Assembly: GCA_963828735.1 (NCBI GenBank)
Contig: CAWHFW010000005.1
Location: forward strand, 1,152,001 to 1,216,000
DNA length: 64,000 nt
Reading direction: 5' to 3'
Source of the DNA: an uncultured Gemmatimonadales bacterium
GTDB taxonomy: Bacteria > Gemmatimonadota > Gemmatimonadetes > Gemmatimonadales > GWC2-71-9
How positions within the stretch are numbered: the first letter of the stretch is position 1; each line of letters opens with the position of its first letter. Shown here piece after piece: positions 9,001 through 42,000 of the stretch. The position numbers are program-made.

Positions 9001-12000
9001 GCGCGACGTCACCGACGATCTGGAGACTCGCGCCGCTCACCTTGTCGATCGTGTCGTCCTTGGTGTGCCACGAGGGATAGTCGAAGTCCACGACGTCGAT
9101 GGCGCGGATGCCAACCTTCTGCAGCTCCAGGTGGTCATCGATCAGGGTGTGCTTCGGCGTGGCGACGAACGTGCCCGCGTAGCCCAGGTCCTTCGCGGTG
9201 TTCCAGACGAGCTCGACCACCTCGGGCGCTCCGACCAGCGAGTTCCCTTCCTCGAAAATCTGCAGGTCCTTGTCGGCGATGAGATCGAACAGGACCGCGT
9301 AGAGCGGCTGCGCGCCGGGCGCCTGGTGCGCGGCGTAATAGCGCGACCCGATCAGGACGTCCTTCGGCGTCTTGGTGAAGTCGCCGTAGTCCTCGCCGTC
9401 CACGAACAGCAGATCCACCCCGACCGTCGGCGGGGCGCGCTTGAGCACATCGGCCACGCCGAGCAGCAGGGCAACGCCAGAGGCGCCGTCGTTGGCGCCG
9501 GGCACCGGCTTGGTCGAGTCGGTGGACGTAGGGCTGTCCGCGGTCGGGCGACTGTCCCAGTGCGCGAGGAACAGGAGCCGCTTGCTTGCGCCGGGCTTGA
9601 ACCGCGCGACGAAGTTGGTGAGCGCGAGCGAGTCGCGGGCGGCGGTGACGTGGGTCCAGGACTGCACGATCAGGGTGTCGGAGCGCTGGCGCAGCAACGA
9701 GTCGAGCCACGCCGTCATCCGCTGGTGTGCCTCGGTCCCCGGAATGCGAGGACCAAACGCCACCTGGGCCTCGAGGTAGCGGAACGCCGAGGTGCCGTCG
9801 AACTCGCGCACGTGCGGCTTCGACTCGCGGCAGGCCGGGAGCAGAAGCGCAGCGAGAAGCAGATATCGGCGTCGCATGGGCAGGATGAAACCGCGCTCGG
9901 GTGGGAAAGTCAACGAGCAGCGATGATGGTGCTACCGGTAGTCGCCGGCGAACAACGAGAGCTGGAACGAGGCGATGATCGAGAGCTGCGACGTCCGGCG
10001 GCTCAGGTGCCGTGCGTCGTTCAAGGTATACCCGACCTGGAGGCCCCCGCTCAGCGTCTGCAACAAATCCGTGTCCACGCCGCCGCGCACCTCGCGTCGC
10101 CGCACATCCGAGATCAGGATGCAGTCGCCCACGTCGCCCTGGTGGATGCAGGTGCGGGCCTTCGTCTGCAGGTACGTGAGCGAGCTCCGCACCGGCTTCC
10201 GCGCGCGGCTCACGGAGCGTGGCAGCCGGATGGTGTACGTGAGCGAGCCGGTGACATCGTTCTGCTGGAGCTGGGTCTCGTTTCCGTTGGACAGGTTGTC
10301 CTGGCCAAGCGTGGTGAGGCCGAGCGTGACGTTTAGGCCGTTCCGGAATCCGAGCTGGACATCCGGCGTCACGGACGACGACTTGATGCTGGTGAGCGCC
10401 GGCGCGCCGCCCCGATTCCCCTGCATCGACGTGCCCTCGCGACGCCGGAACGCGGTCCCAACCGCGACGATCGTGAACGGACCCCCGCGGAACGTGCGGC
10501 TCCAGCGGACGTTCCCGACCGGCCACTCGGTCTGCTGGGTCTCGGTCTCGATGAAGGCCTCGCCCACGCGCTGCAGACGAGTGGTCCGGCTGAGCGCGTG
10601 CGAGATGGTGAAGGTGACGCCGTACGGCAGGTCCGCTCCGGTGGCCACGGTGGCGGTCCGCGTCTCGGAGACGCCGCGAGCCGCCTCGCCTTCCTGCACC
10701 AGGAAGTCGTCGAGGCCGCCCAGCGCGAGCTGGTATCTCAGGCTCGGATCGAACGCGTTCAGGTCGTAGGTGGACGTGCGGGTGAGCCGCGTGCTCGCGT
10801 CGATCGGCCGGACGCGCGCCATCGTCTTGCCGATGCCGCTGCTGTCCCCGGCGATCAGGCGGAGGGCGCGCGCGAAGTCCACCGACGCGCCGAGCTCGTT
10901 GGTTCGGGCGTTGTTGAGGGTCTGGGGCAGAATGAACGCGCCGCTGTCCCCATCCGCCCGCACCGGATCGCGACTCGAGAGCGTCCGGCTCAGCACGAAG
11001 TTGCTGGTGGTGATGAACCGCGGCCGGAGCCAGGACGCGAGGTTTGGCGTCAAGGCGAGCGCCGTCGCCACCGTCCGGTCGCGCTCGACCCCTACCGGAA
11101 TGCCCAGAAAGAACCGACGCTCCGCGTAGGCCAGTCGTCCGATCGGCGACGAGTCCGGATACACCCGAAGGTCGCGGGTGCTGGCCAAGTCGCCGCTCAG
11201 GTTGAGCATGCCCAGGGGCTGCCAGGTGAGGCCCGCAGAGTTGCGCCAGAGATGGTTGAGGGCCAGCGTCGGCTGGAAGGCGTCGTCGTCGCTTCGCGCG
11301 ACGGGGAACCGGAAGGCCGTCGAGTTGGACTCATCCCGGTTGAGCCCGCTCGCCAGACGGAACCGGGTGGGATTCACGCTCAGGTCCGCCCGCTCGAGGC
11401 TTTTCCCGATCTCGCCCTCACGCATGAACTTCGGCAGCACGCTGGCGATGCCCCCGAGGCCGAGGTGGATGCCACGGCGGCGCGATTGTACCTGGTATGT
11501 CACGTTCATGGTGTAGGAGTTGGACTGGACCTCCGACAATTCGGTGATCGCGTGCCCCTGGGTATAGCTCGCCGCGGCCGAGAGCGGATCGAACAGGCCC
11601 TTCGTCAGCCAGGTCCGTCCGGGTATCGCACGGCGAATCCCCATGGTGACAGTCCCGCTCCGGGTGTCCGGCTTCCGCAGTCCGCTCAGCGCGTCCCCGC
11701 GAATGTCGGTGCCGGTCAGCAGCTCCGGGTTGGTCGCCGTCCGCGCGTAGGCGACCGTCACCGGCACCGCGAGCCCGAGGTTGGTGGGCAGGAAGCGCTC
11801 GAGCCGGAGGTTGCCGCCCATCTGGAGCACGTCGGTGCCAAGGTAGGACGGATCCTGGTTGATCTGCCGGAACTGGCCGTTCTGCTTGATGAACGCGACC
11901 GACAGCGCGGCCACGTCCGAGGCGACGAGCCGCGCGTCGACCGACGCGGCTGTGCCGGTCTGGGAGACGGGATCGGTGAGTCGGATGTCGTCCACCCACA

Positions 12001-39000: not shown

Positions 39001-42000
39001 TCGCTCCCGCCGGTCTTGGTGACGTAGTTGATGATACCGGACTTGGCGTTGCCGAACTCGGCGGAGGAGGAACCGGTGGTGACGGAGGCTTCTTCGAAGG
39101 CGTTGGTGCCGATCTCGAGCGCCGTGCCGGCGGAGCCCGCGAATCGATCGCCGCGGTAGCCGGCCTGGACCGGGACGCCGTCGACGTACGTGGCGGCTTC
39201 GTTGTTGCGGCCGCCGCGGATCGAGAGCTTCCCGGCGTTGTCCGCGGTGACGCCCGGCTGGAGCTTGAGGACGTCGTTGATCCGGTCGACCGGGAGCGCG
39301 TCGGCGAACTGGCCGTCTACCCGCTGCTTGGTCGTGACCTCGTCACGCGGCACGAGCGGCTGCGTCTCCGTGACGACGGTGATCTCCTGGATCTGCACGG
39401 CCGTCTGCTCGAGCTGCACGTCCACCGTGATCGTCTGGCCGGCGAGCACCTTCACGCCTTCGACCTGGGTCGACTTGTAGCCGATGAAGTTGGCGCGCAC
39501 CACCACCGATCCGGCGGGGATGTTGTTGATGAAGTAGTAGCCCTGCGGGTTGGTCAGGGCGTTGAACGCCGTCCCAACCACGAACACCTGGGCGTTGGCA
39601 ATGGGCGCGCCCGCTTGGTCGCGCACCCTGCCTTCGATCTTACCAGTCGAGCCTTGGGCGAGGAGCGAGCTTGCTCCCAGGCCCAGCGCGACTGCCGCGC
39701 ACGCGATGACCCGCGCAACGCGTACGAAGGCGCTGACACGGCAATGCTTCATGGATACGTCCTCCAAAGGCGTGAACCTGCACGTACGACCGACCGTGAG
39801 CGGGGAGCGCACGCCTCCCCATGGCTCTGGGCCTGCTTCGAGATGCGGCCTGCTGTGGGAGTACGTCCTACGTTGAGAAGAGGGGGCGCAATGTCGGTTC
39901 CGACATCGCGTGCGACAACCGCGGCCCGGCCGTCGCAGCCTAATATGAAGCCCGTAAAATTTCGTGTCAAGCAAGGGTCACACACGCGCACTCGGCGAAT
40001 CACCGCCGGCGTAACTCTCTGAAACCGAGGCAGTTGCCTATTGAAACAACCTGCAAGCGGTCGGGCGCGCGCGATCGAGCGGCGGTGCGCTGACGCAACC
40101 GAGAAACCGTCGCGGGCGCGAACACAAAAAAGCGGGCGCTGTGTATTCGGATTGGTACAGGGAAATAGACGGACGCGATTCTAACGTATCGCCGGAGATT
40201 TGGGAAGGGGTCGCCCTCCGCGACCCGGTTTCCTAGGCCGGTGCGAGGATCAGCTCGGCCTGCGGCTCGCGCGGAGTGACCTCCGGACCCGACCCACCCC
40301 AGTGCATGTTGACCTCGCTCCGTACGCCGAATTCGCCAGGGAGGTATACCCCCGGCTCCACCGAGAACCCGATGCCGGGAATCAGCCGGCGGTCGTCGTG
40401 GGTCTCGTAGTCGTCCAGATGCGGTCCCGAGCCGTGCAGGTCCCGGTCGATCGAGTGGCCGGTGCGATGCACGAACCGCTCCCCGAGCCCCGCCGCCTCG
40501 ATGACCCCGCGCGCGGCCCGGTCCGCCTCGAAGCCCGCGATCGGCCGCCCCTCCGCCACCGCGGTCCGGACCAGCGCCACCGCCGCCTCCCGCGCCGAGC
40601 GCACCACCTCCCACACCCGGGCGACGCGCTCGGGCGGGCGCTCGCCGGCGAAGCCCATCCAGGTCTGGTCCGCGAAGACCGTGGTCCGGCTCCGGCCGGC
40701 CCACAGGTCGAGCAGCACCACGTCACCCGCGCGAAGCGTGGCGTCCCGGCCGGGCTGCGGCTCGTAGTGGGGGTTGGCGGAGTTGGGACCGAACCCGACG
40801 ATCGGCAGGGTGTCGAAGACGAGCCCTCTGGCCTCCACCGCCGCCACGACCCGCGCCTGGAGCGCGGTCTCGGTGAGGCCCCTGCCCGCCTCGCGAACGG
40901 CCCGCGCGAGCGCGGCGCGGGCGACGTCCGCCAGCACCTCCGCGGCGAACCGGTGGTCCGCCGCCTCCGCCGCCGTCCATCCCGACGCGAACCGGCTGAC
41001 CAGCGGCGCCGAGGGAACCACCGTGCCCCCCAGCCGACGCACCAGCTCCACCACGCCGCTCGGCACGCGATCGAGGTACGGCACGGCGTCGTCCGGGAAC
41101 ACCTCCATCGCCAGGCGCTTGCCCGCCACGACCGCCCCCAGGGCCGCGTGCAGCTCCTCCCATCGAGCATACGGCACGACCCGCCCCGGGAATCGTTCCA
41201 CCGGCGCGAGCTCGATCCGGTGGGCCACCGCCACCGGCTCGCCCTCCGCCGGCAGCAGGACGAACAGCCGACGGGTGTTGAGTCCCTCGAGCTCGAGGAT
41301 GCGGGTCGCGACCGGATTGAGCCCGTGGAAGGCGTACAGGAGCCAGCCGTCCGCCCCGGCCGCCGCGAGCTCCTCTCGCAGCGCGTCGCGGTCGGGGATC
41401 ACTCGTAGACCTCCGCGGCCGCGCTCCGCCAGACGCACGCATCGTCCCCGCGCGAGCGGCAGCGCTCGTGCAGCATGGCGCCCTCGAACGCCGTGAGCTT
41501 GCGGAGCAGCTCGCCGTAGGCCGCTCCGTAGAAGGCGCAGGCGGCGCCGTCCGGCACGGCCAGGATCGAGAGCGGATCGCTCATCCGCACCTCGGTATCG
41601 TGCGCCGGGACCCGCAGGTCGCCCCCGAAGATCTGGCGCGCCAGCCGCGAAGCCGCCCGCAGCGATACCTGGCGGCCGAGCCCCGCGGGCGACATGCGCG
41701 CGAGCGTCCGCGCCGATCGCCCGCGCGAGCGCGCGGCGTAGCGCGCGGCCCGACGGCCCGCGTCGGCGAAGACCAGCGCGGCGTCCGGGCGCCGGCTCAC
41801 CAACCGGAGCACGCTCACCACCTCGTCGAGCTCCACCGTCCCCTCTCGCTCGGCCGCCACGCGGTAGCGCTGGATCTGCGCCGCGACCGTCGGGCTCAGG
41901 CCGAGCCGCCGGACCACGATCTCTTCGGCGAGCTCGTCGAGTCCGTCTTCGACGGGTGTGTCCAGATTGCGGATCGCCTCGAGCAGGCTGAGCGGAAGCA

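Follow-up and report, generated by a model that had tools for sequence, protein, structure and literature searches.

A probable motor-less type IX secretion system encoded with a TonB-dependent transporter in an uncultured Gemmatimonadales bacterium

How could a type IX secretion system (T9SS) deliver proteins when it has an outer-membrane translocon, a carrier and a cargo, and no motor? The window that raises this question, the whole stretch of 64,000 nucleotides analysed here, had been described in an earlier note as encoding a "motor-less or differently energised T9SS". The translocon gene sprA (9932..16006, minus strand) was confirmed. Its 2024-aa product scored 497 bits against TIGR04189 (cut-off 200) in a profile search, also carried PF14349, and matched the F. 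johnsoniae SprA 6H3I with phmmer (E 2.6e-25, 91 bits). Judged by this alignment, SprA here is distant from the studied F. johnsoniae protein, and it is about 350-500 aa shorter than the motor-linked forms (2367-2529 aa). The TIGR04189 cut-off was passed in 96 of 121 Gemmatimonadota genomes. The gene lies outside the cargo operon, 12 kb from the last gene of the operon and with housekeeping genes between. Downstream of sprA and in the same orientation were an M28 peptidase gene, whose product we take to be glutaminyl-cyclase-like, and comEA, pilB, pilT and pilC (4091..9913, minus strand), while lptF and lptG (15792..19078, plus strand; PF03739) were divergent from it. Among 21 sprA loci, pilB/pilT were found in 15, comEA in 12, M28 in 10 and lptFG in 20; the three loci from family f10 of the phylum were without adjacent pilB/pilT/pilC.

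No GldK, GldL, GldM or GldN over cut-off was found in the 121 genomes of the phylum, in agreement with the earlier note. GldM and GldN each gave no match in any of the 121, GldL gave three weak matches, and GldK gave partial domain matches in 32 genomes; the two GldK matches of the genome itself were EgtB and a protein with no visible lipoprotein signal. The positive controls that had been missing for GldL and GldN were since run and gave 5/5 each in Bacteroidota. GldM was over the cut-off in 14 of 61 Bacteroidota genomes, and no control genome passed for GldK (TIGR03525). A first set of five genomes with Bacteroidetes, Chitinophagales or Cytophagia labels gave GldM in 0/5, was therefore not a valid GldM control, and was replaced by the 61-genome draw. 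With custom profiles built from 13-14 Bacteroidota sequences each, GldM and GldN went undetected among the six-frame ORFs of the genome; the GldL profile picked up only a chemoreceptor-like coiled coil, and the GldK profile only sulfatase-modifying-type domains. In three genomes of the phylum the best SprE/PorW score was 34.6 bits (a generic TPR) against a cut-off of 250 and a control of 820, Plug (PF17116) matched in 0/3 with 2/2 controls matching, and PorP/SprF (TIGR03519) in 0/3 with 13 over cut-off in the control. The genome held neither a SprE-type periplasmic linker above background nor a third MotA/ExbB-family gene. ExbB-family genes occurred at just two loci, those of Ton and Tol-Pal, each about 1 Mb away from sprA, and on this count the idea of a dedicated Ton-type motor was rejected. 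Nor is this genome alone in lacking a motor: the same was seen in 35 of 49 SprA-positive genomes of the Bacteroidota-wide draw (with GldM as sole criterion), and motor-less SprA/PorV is already in print for Ignavibacteria in the accessible part of PMC11705866.

The cargo operon had the five-gene order given in the earlier note: TonB-dependent barrel, cargo, PorV, GWxTD protein and lipoprotein. It was preceded by a sigma70-like promoter site (39942..39970, minus strand; 10/12 consensus, 17-nt spacer) and followed by a terminator-like hairpin (27866..27897, minus strand; 14 pairs, 11 G-C, T tail). Both are consensus matches only, with two such promoter sites found against 0.8 in shuffles and hairpins equal in number to the shuffle mean. 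Probable start codons were ATG 39752 for the barrel and ATG 36231 for the cargo. The TonB-dependent transporter (36321..39752, minus strand; PF13620, PF07715) consisted of a signal peptide, a carboxypeptidase-regulatory-like N domain, a plug and a beta-barrel with large loops. Its model had a pLDDT of 86.7, the best Foldseek matches were all TonB-dependent transporters (E 2e-24), and the SusC model gave only 27.5 bits (cut-off 368). The gene for the GWxTD-domain protein (29459..30904, minus strand; TIGR04514 79 bits, PF20094) comes after PorV in many Gemmatimonadales loci. The last gene (28044..29414, minus strand) encodes an Ig/PPC-type lipoprotein, not SusD, with a lipobox in the sequence, a weak PPC match, and Atlas look-alikes that have Big_2/PPC. 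A Pfam-type search gave no SusD match in the operon; two PF07980 matches lie elsewhere in the genome, and thus the trio of transporter, cargo and PorV does not replace SusCD. No carbohydrate enzyme was found in the operon. Twenty sequencing runs contained part of it. For expression, contigs from three RNA sets and from one of DNA gave only thin cover along 20600-40500, of the operon and of housekeeping genes alike.

The cargo (32146..36231, minus strand) is a protein of about 1361 aa from an unnamed family with homologues in 5713 clusters at E<=1e-10. No Pfam family was found in it or in 19 homologues, a PDB profile search gave no matches, and an Atlas search gave hypothetical clusters only. 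From the model and fold search, its layout was a signal peptide, a beta-supersandwich domain, an Fn3-like domain, a variable region and a type-A-like C-terminal secretion domain (CTD). The earlier statement that no structural match exists beyond Fn3 did not hold. Residues 39-800 (model pLDDT 90.8) contain an N-terminal domain (34603..36114, minus strand) that resembled the N-terminal beta-supersandwich domains of GH15, GH94, GH65 and GH116 enzymes, with values of Z 18.6, rmsd 3.4 and 256 aligned for 9ju0 and Z 18.5 for glucoamylase 1lf6. The catalytic barrel that comes next in the matched enzymes was absent. A common fold with glycoside hydrolases is not proof of function, and YidC, too, has a supersandwich fold (Z 12.3).

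By its profile matches the cargo tail (32149..32457, minus strand) is a type-A-like CTD. The previously reported PorZ, PorU and Por_Secre_tail (TIGR04183) matches were reproduced, though weak (16-21 bits, cut-off 23) and best against the PorZ and PorU models. The CTD of the paralogue reached the TIGR04183 cut-off, and a broad profile built from 211 diverse CTDs gave 149 bits on the cargo CTD. The same profile revealed a second family where only one had been claimed: a conserved 150-aa protein of signal peptide and CTD only (C2:156640-157089, minus strand), retained in 13 of 24 SprA-negative genomes of the phylum. No PorU-sized CTD protein was among the matches of the broad profile in the genome, and a FlgD_ig search added no CTD. 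Very few substrates is a fair description of this genome and its class, where two CTD families occur. It fails for families f10-f12 of the phylum: with no motor, their genomes each had 8-31 CTD matches and 4-17 PorV-family matches. The paralogous barrel and cargo pair at C5:785.8-792.9 kb, frameshifted according to the note, did show about ten frame changes. These extended into two unrelated kinase genes at ~780-785 kb and came with few stops, so that assembly error is likelier than decay and true pseudogene status was disfavoured.

The PorV/PorQ-family barrel (30946..32088, minus strand) scored 139.8 bits against NF033709 (cut-off 90), and no other match was found in the genome, which upholds the claim of a single PorV-family gene. 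We name it at family level only because it was under the equivalog cut-offs for PorV (53 against 250) and PorQ (64 against 220); it was also under that for PorV2, and its match to the PorV chain 6h3i_F was weak (E 0.0012). The CTD-PorV complex model scored 0.84 (best control 0.00), with at least 83% of contacts agreeing between runs and a partner pLDDT of at least 72. Of 157 solved pairs 116 attained this mark, as did 2 of 215 mismatched pairs, and this pass may reflect likeness because like complexes have been solved (8GL6 series). The predicted cargo-PorV interface lies wholly in the CTD.

Of 56 loci with enough flanking sequence on either side, 50 kept the order transporter, cargo, PorV, and these span many named FCB lineages. 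Such conservation suggests a dedicated anchor for the partner of the transporter rather than the general shuttle that PorV had been taken for. Genomes of family f10 had 5-17 PorV matches, each of 12 f10 cassettes fetched had its own barrel, and the cassettes were adjoined by sugar-use genes (GH28, GH123-like, melibiase-like, ROK, sodium:solute symporter). PorV and CTD identities covaried in these 12 cassettes (rho 0.86), but whole-cassette duplication explains this, and the covariation does not count as a sign of co-evolution. Strong PorV matches (E<=3e-18) were present in 95/97 SprA-positive and 2/24 SprA-negative genomes of the phylum, and cargo matches in 60/97 and 0/24, respectively, among kin that are not independent. 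In some of the 37 SprA-positive genomes missed by the cargo query, the trio contains a different cargo family that does not align with the first. In the 61-genome Bacteroidota draw, with a cut-off of 1e-10 and again non-independent kin, the cargo profile matched 32/35 SprA-positive, GldM-negative genomes, 0/14 GldM-positive and 0/12 SprA-negative genomes. We do not claim on 0/14 that trio and motor are mutually exclusive, given this kinship and cut-off; seven weaker PorV loci in 5 of the 14 GldM-positive genomes had no trio. With working controls for GldL, GldM and GldN, no SprE, Plug or PorP found, and PorV and cargo tracking SprA, the motor-less or differently energised T9SS of the earlier note was strengthened.

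Our main reading, at a probability of roughly 0.55, is that of a translocon-only, motor-less T9SS that builds a surface uptake complex. From genes, folds, co-occurrence and a missing motor, all obtained computationally, it proposes secretion, binding, a ligand and an energy source. The host, a soil bacterium, and most of its relatives probably use the pore to place a large protein of a sugar-binding type next to an importer of nutrients. The cargo would be exported by Sec, as its signal peptide suggests, and its CTD would enter SprA and bind, as predicted here, to loops on the PorV-family barrel that the operon encodes. In F. johnsoniae, loading onto SprA/PorV needs no energy according to the accessible part of PMC10994853. 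The PorV-cargo pair would then exit SprA without GldLM motor, GldKN ring or SprE. For this step we infer, as a preferred but tentative guess, diffusion from a gate that binds less tightly, with capture by the co-encoded transporter preventing return. The CTD would stay uncleaved and the cargo would remain on its barrel like PorZ on PorQ, PorZ-PorQ and PorU-PorV anchoring being known in P. gingivalis (PMC12365241, accessible part). We consider it rather likely that the cargo acts like SusD, although it is no lipoprotein: its supersandwich domain would capture a ligand, such as a glycan, and hand it over to the transporter, itself powered by ordinary TonB-ExbBD. Against this reading, release in F. 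johnsoniae depends on motor and SprE, in whose absence substrates stall (PMC10994853, same part); no precedent for passive release was found in the literature; and up to 31 CTD matches in motor-less f10-f12 suggest a greater flux than would be expected of slow passive release. The CTD under curated cut-offs, the 37/97 genomes missed by the cargo query, the lack of a carbohydrate enzyme in the operon and the YidC fold count on the same side, as does the idle pore, whose seal is unaccounted for with Plug not found.

The same parts might instead have release from SprA powered by TonB-ExbBD, pulling via the cargo-bound transporter or on the translocon. GldLM and ExbBD have a 5:2 motor design in common, every trio has a TonB-dependent barrel, Ton genes adjoin the trio in 3/20 and 4/80 loci, and in the Bacteroidota draw the cargo family is a marker of genomes without the motor. 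We nevertheless consider such pulling unlikely: the two ExbB-family loci are far from sprA, Ton genes beside a TonB-dependent transporter require no further explanation, and another route would be needed for CTD proteins not partnered with a transporter (the 150-aa protein and the f10-f12 enzymes). Lower still is the probability of an unrecognised energiser, either a motor whose sequence has diverged beyond the reach of profiles or the type IV pilus ATPases downstream of sprA. Very remote homologues do escape profile searches, and pilB/pilT and comEA recur after sprA. However, the most cargo-rich loci, those of f10, are the three without adjacent pil genes, lptFG accompany sprA more consistently still, a pattern that suggests inherited envelope synteny, and neither a third MotA/ExbB-family gene nor a SprE-type linker was found in the genome.

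It is very unlikely, in our judgement, that SprA has another job and that the cargo reaches PorV by a different route (e.g. BAM-assisted) or is periplasmic. The sub-cut-off CTD, the distance from the studied SprA, the CTD-only protein kept in SprA-negative genomes and a BamG-like barrel (22 orders of E-value, under the cut-off) would fit such a route, but without SprA strong PorV is nearly, and the cargo wholly, missing in the phylum, the cargo is likewise missing in the Bacteroidota draw, and the predicted PorV interface uses the CTD alone.

Returning to the motor-less uptake complex, the motor is held essential to pull cargo off SprA in the accessible part of PMC10994853. SprA, PorV and cargo kept without motor, ring or SprE (96/121 genomes and further lineages) imply that passive release is possible or that there is another energy source. 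Motor-linked SprAs formed one clade nested among motor-less SprAs, which speaks against the proposal (PMC12635249) that the T9SS originated within the gliding machinery, and a pore kept without motor in the host and most relatives suggests that the pore is older than the motor. It is conceivable, if doubtful, that the ancestral T9SS was a motor-less SprA-PorV device with the main task of mounting CTD-tagged capture proteins, on barrels dedicated to them, beside TonB-dependent transporters, with release by binding ratchet or Ton pulling. The gliding motor would have been added once, later, in Bacteroidia, and the Gemmatimonadales form, with no Plug or SprE and the CTD-only protein maybe stoppering the idle pore, would be the barest living version. 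One carrier with two cargo families makes a simple test bed, and the trio may offer abundant bacteria of soil and sea a widely distributed alternative to SusCD that needs no lipoprotein. Going by a cited title, a xylanase of Rhodothermus that bears a CTD is reportedly attached to the cell. The cultured relative Gemmatimonas aurantiaca is in the supplement of PMC12611786, whose accessible part treats SprA across FCB. No literature on the trio or on the working of motor-less SprA was found in a search with subscription journals mostly outside its scope, and the accessible parts of PMC4793230, PMC5445135, PMC9127263, PMC4814513 and PMC6539836 held nothing on either.

Among known systems, SprA+PorV+Plug-only sets of Melioribacter and Ignavibacterium (PMC11705866) likewise have the translocon without other T9SS proteins, outside Bacteroidia; the Gemmatimonadota genomes tested also had no Plug match, and the accessible part of the published account is a passing one, with no cargo, mechanism or trio. 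With Bacteroidota SprA/Sov and PorV (F. johnsoniae 6H3I, 8GL6 series; PMC10994853, accessible part) the system shares a SprA over the cut-off, a PorV-family barrel and, by prediction, the docking of a type-A-like CTD on that barrel. It differs in that no GldLM, GldKN, SprE, Plug or PorP was found, SprA is shorter, PorV is encoded with one cargo, and there are two CTD families only. As in PorZ-PorQ and PorU-PorV of P. gingivalis (PMC12365241, accessible part), a type-A CTD protein would be kept on a PorV/PorQ-family barrel, but here with an unrelated cargo body (supersandwich and Fn3), a TonB-dependent transporter as partner and no PorKN ring. Type B cargo and PorP/SprF shuttles (PMC12618676) also have the carrier gene directly downstream of the cargo, each cargo having a carrier of its own, with several such pairs in some genomes. 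All type A CTDs are said there to share one PorV; here type-A-like CTDs pair with PorV-family barrels, and PorP/SprF was not found. SusC/SusD loci likewise place a TonB-dependent transporter before a variable surface partner, with sugar-use neighbours in f10, and the plugged barrel, a SusC-type feature, is present in the operon (PF07715, model, Foldseek). The partner here is neither a lipoprotein nor of the SusD fold, and has a secretion tail and a dedicated barrel.

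The window spans C5:1152001-1216000 of a genome (4.78 Mb in 7 contigs, 69% GC, completeness 97.5%, contamination 5.17%) that belongs to Gemmatimonadales by the names of its homologues. It carries sprA at 9932-16006 (-), which scored 497 bits against TIGR04189 and whose product matched the F. johnsoniae SprA structure in a sequence search. About 12 kb from sprA lies a five-gene operon, with a promoter-like site at one end, a hairpin at the other and the gene order given in the earlier note: a TonB-dependent barrel (start ATG 39752), a cargo protein of an unnamed family (32146..36231, -, start ATG 36231), a PorV-family barrel, a GWxTD protein and an Ig/PPC lipoprotein. 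Among the SprA and cargo matches listed, the two genes were found on one contig, approximately 10-27 kb apart, in at least 23 genomes. A conserved block surrounds sprA, with lptF and lptG divergent (15792-19078, +) and genes for an M28 peptidase, comEA, pilB, pilT and pilC on the opposite side (4091-9913, -). The lipoprotein-like M28 peptidase (8975-9913, -) resembles Bacteroidetes glutaminyl cyclase by its motifs, and several operon proteins have Gln directly after the predicted signal peptide, in the style of the Q-rule. Elsewhere in the window, heme A synthase (CtaA) and heme O synthase (CtaB) share a single frame (23842-25860, +). Outside the window, a frame of 1170 aa (C5:90505-94014, -, locus L236) holds TatC, over the cut, and an LptD-like barrel; it lies just downstream of the Tol-Pal genes and is a candidate fusion or missed stop.

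The motor and ring proteins were searched in a single fixed draw of 121 phylum genomes, including the genome under study and one member, G055, marked unpublished; as related genomes are not independent, counts from this draw are descriptive and do not serve as tests. GldM and GldN profiles matched in 0 of 121 genomes. For GldL there were three weak matches and for GldK 32 matches to part of the domain, all of which stayed below the cut. The 14 standard control genomes contained no T9SS genome, and the control set comprised 61 genomes drawn around one Bacteroidota-labelled record. GldM was over the cut in 14 of these 61, and GldL and GldN were both over the cut in all five GldM-positive control genomes searched, which supplies the positive control that the earlier note had lacked for these two. 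Profiles of our own, built from 13-14 sequences per gene from the control loci, were searched against all six-frame ORFs of the genome: GldM and GldN found nothing, GldL a chemoreceptor-like coiled coil (E 0.02), and GldK EgtB and one more sulfatase-modifying-type protein. The absence of GldK/L/M/N claimed earlier is thus borne out, and the genome almost certainly lacks all four genes. SprE, Plug and PorP/SprF were not found in any of the three phylum genomes searched, with positive controls.

At 17-2088 (+) of the window, a DUF4340 protein and a GldG-like ABC auxiliary protein (73 bits for TIGR03521, cut 390) have a weak and non-specific resemblance to gliding ABC parts. A BamG-like barrel (C2:191832-192965, -, locus L239; NF053685 78 bits, cut 250) is consistent with a Bacteroidota-type BAM complex.

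SprA was detected in 97 of the 121 phylum genomes. PorV-family matches (E<=3e-18) were found in 95/97 SprA-positive versus 2/24 SprA-negative genomes, four members of the negative set being deduced from family tallies. Cargo matches occurred in 60/97 versus 0/24, many of the 60 being CTD-only matches. In the Bacteroidota draw, SprA was present in 49/61 genomes, among them the 14 with GldM over the cut. The cargo profile matched in 32 of the 35 SprA-positive genomes without GldM over the cut, one of these 32 having a weak GldM match, and in 0/14 GldM-positive and 0/12 SprA-negative genomes.

The transporter preceded the cargo in 20/20 phylum loci and a called PorV followed it in 19/20, figures that are not rates since the loci were selected for a CTD match near a PorV match. 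Eighty loci came from an independent scan, in lineages that included Glassbacteria, WOR-3, Calditrichia, Ignavibacteria, Marinimicrobia, Cloacimonadota, Eisenbacteria, Krumholzibacteria and Rubricoccaceae; the transporter-cargo-PorV order was seen in 50 of the 56 with room on both sides, and seven loci failed on a side. The cargo family comprises 5713 clusters (E<=1e-10), with no Pfam name among the homologues searched. Genomes of phylum family f10 had 5-17 PorV matches each, and several cassettes were adjoined by sugar-use genes. The motor-less SprA/PorV/cargo system is real and widespread. A second cargo family (loci L081-L085; 1345-1427 aa, no Pfam) has the same gene order, and after its PorV come a small beta-barrel and a protein of 450-640 aa of unknown type; this family is not present in the genome under study. 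One more transporter that belongs to the family seen in the trio (C2:859201-862569, +; 373 bits) has no cargo or PorV after it, and its frame may have a broken start.

The earlier note had reported one CTD cargo family, and for the cargo no solved structure beyond weak Fn3 hits; neither statement held. A broader CTD profile added a third locus, a conserved 150-aa protein that consists solely of a type-A-like CTD behind a signal peptide (C2:156640-157089, -, L186/L217), located between selB-like and clpB genes, with 20.8 bits for TIGR04183 and a profile match to the cargo CTD at E 1.3e-5. It had matches in 108/121 genomes and was single in most of the class; as a query it found 8-31 CTD proteins per genome in families f10-f12. 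This CTD-only protein could stopper idle PorV or SprA instead of the missing Plug, but it is retained in 13 of the 24 SprA-negative genomes. The frameshifts of the paralogous barrel and cargo pair were seen as described, and they run into two neighbouring kinase genes: across 13 kb (C5:780000-793000, L216) many frameshifts and few stops cover unrelated genes, so that the zone is probably a local assembly error.

Cargo residues 39-800 were modelled at pLDDT 90.8. The first 500 residues resemble the beta-supersandwich domain found N-terminally in enzymes of GH15, GH94, GH65 and GH116 (256 aligned at Z 18.6 and rmsd 3.4; Foldseek E 2e-5), without their catalytic barrel. The operon barrel was identified as a plugged TonB-dependent transporter by predicted model and fold search. 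For PorV paired with the C-terminal 260 residues of the cargo, the complex score was 0.84 versus 0.00 for the best control, with contacts confined to the CTD; as similar complexes are already solved, this model indicates likeness and not binding.

We consider export of the cargo through SprA onto PorV the best reading (probability about 0.8). The cargo would be loaded onto its own PorV-family barrel, depart by diffusion or some further pull, and remain uncleaved next to the transporter as a capture subunit; that it forms the transporter's lid is somewhat favoured. In F. johnsoniae, PorV loading inside SprA is reported to be energy-free and release to require the motor and SprE (PMC10994853). 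Passive release from SprA is suggested here tentatively. Release may instead be powered by Ton pulling or by the pilus ATPases, whose genes pilB/pilT come after sprA at 15 of the 21 loci. The genome has one Ton and one Tol-Pal locus, each far from sprA. Alternatively, the role of the system may be non-secretory.

In a midpoint-rooted FastTree phylogeny of SprA (39 sequences, 1627 columns), the 10 sequences of GldM-positive genomes formed one clade (support 1.0) and the 15 Gemmatimonadota sequences another (support 1.0), with 14 motor-less sequences of the Bacteroidota draw on three successive branches between them. If Gemmatimonadota is taken as the outgroup, which is its place in FCB trees, a single gain of the motor is more parsimonious than four losses; with the root on the motor branch, one motor loss would be needed instead. 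The T9SS has been proposed to have begun within gliding machinery (PMC12635249).

In the literature searches made, we found no study on the trio or on motor-less export. SprA has been termed FCB-specific in a report whose BAM table includes Gemmatimonas aurantiaca (PMC12611786), and cognate carriers are described for type B cargo only (PMC12618676). In Melioribacter and Ignavibacterium, PorV, SprA and Plug are reported to be the only T9SS proteins (PMC11705866). Since motor, ring and SprE were all searched for and not found, the present system is not a canonical T9SS member; it very likely runs on the same pore and carrier as the canonical T9SS.
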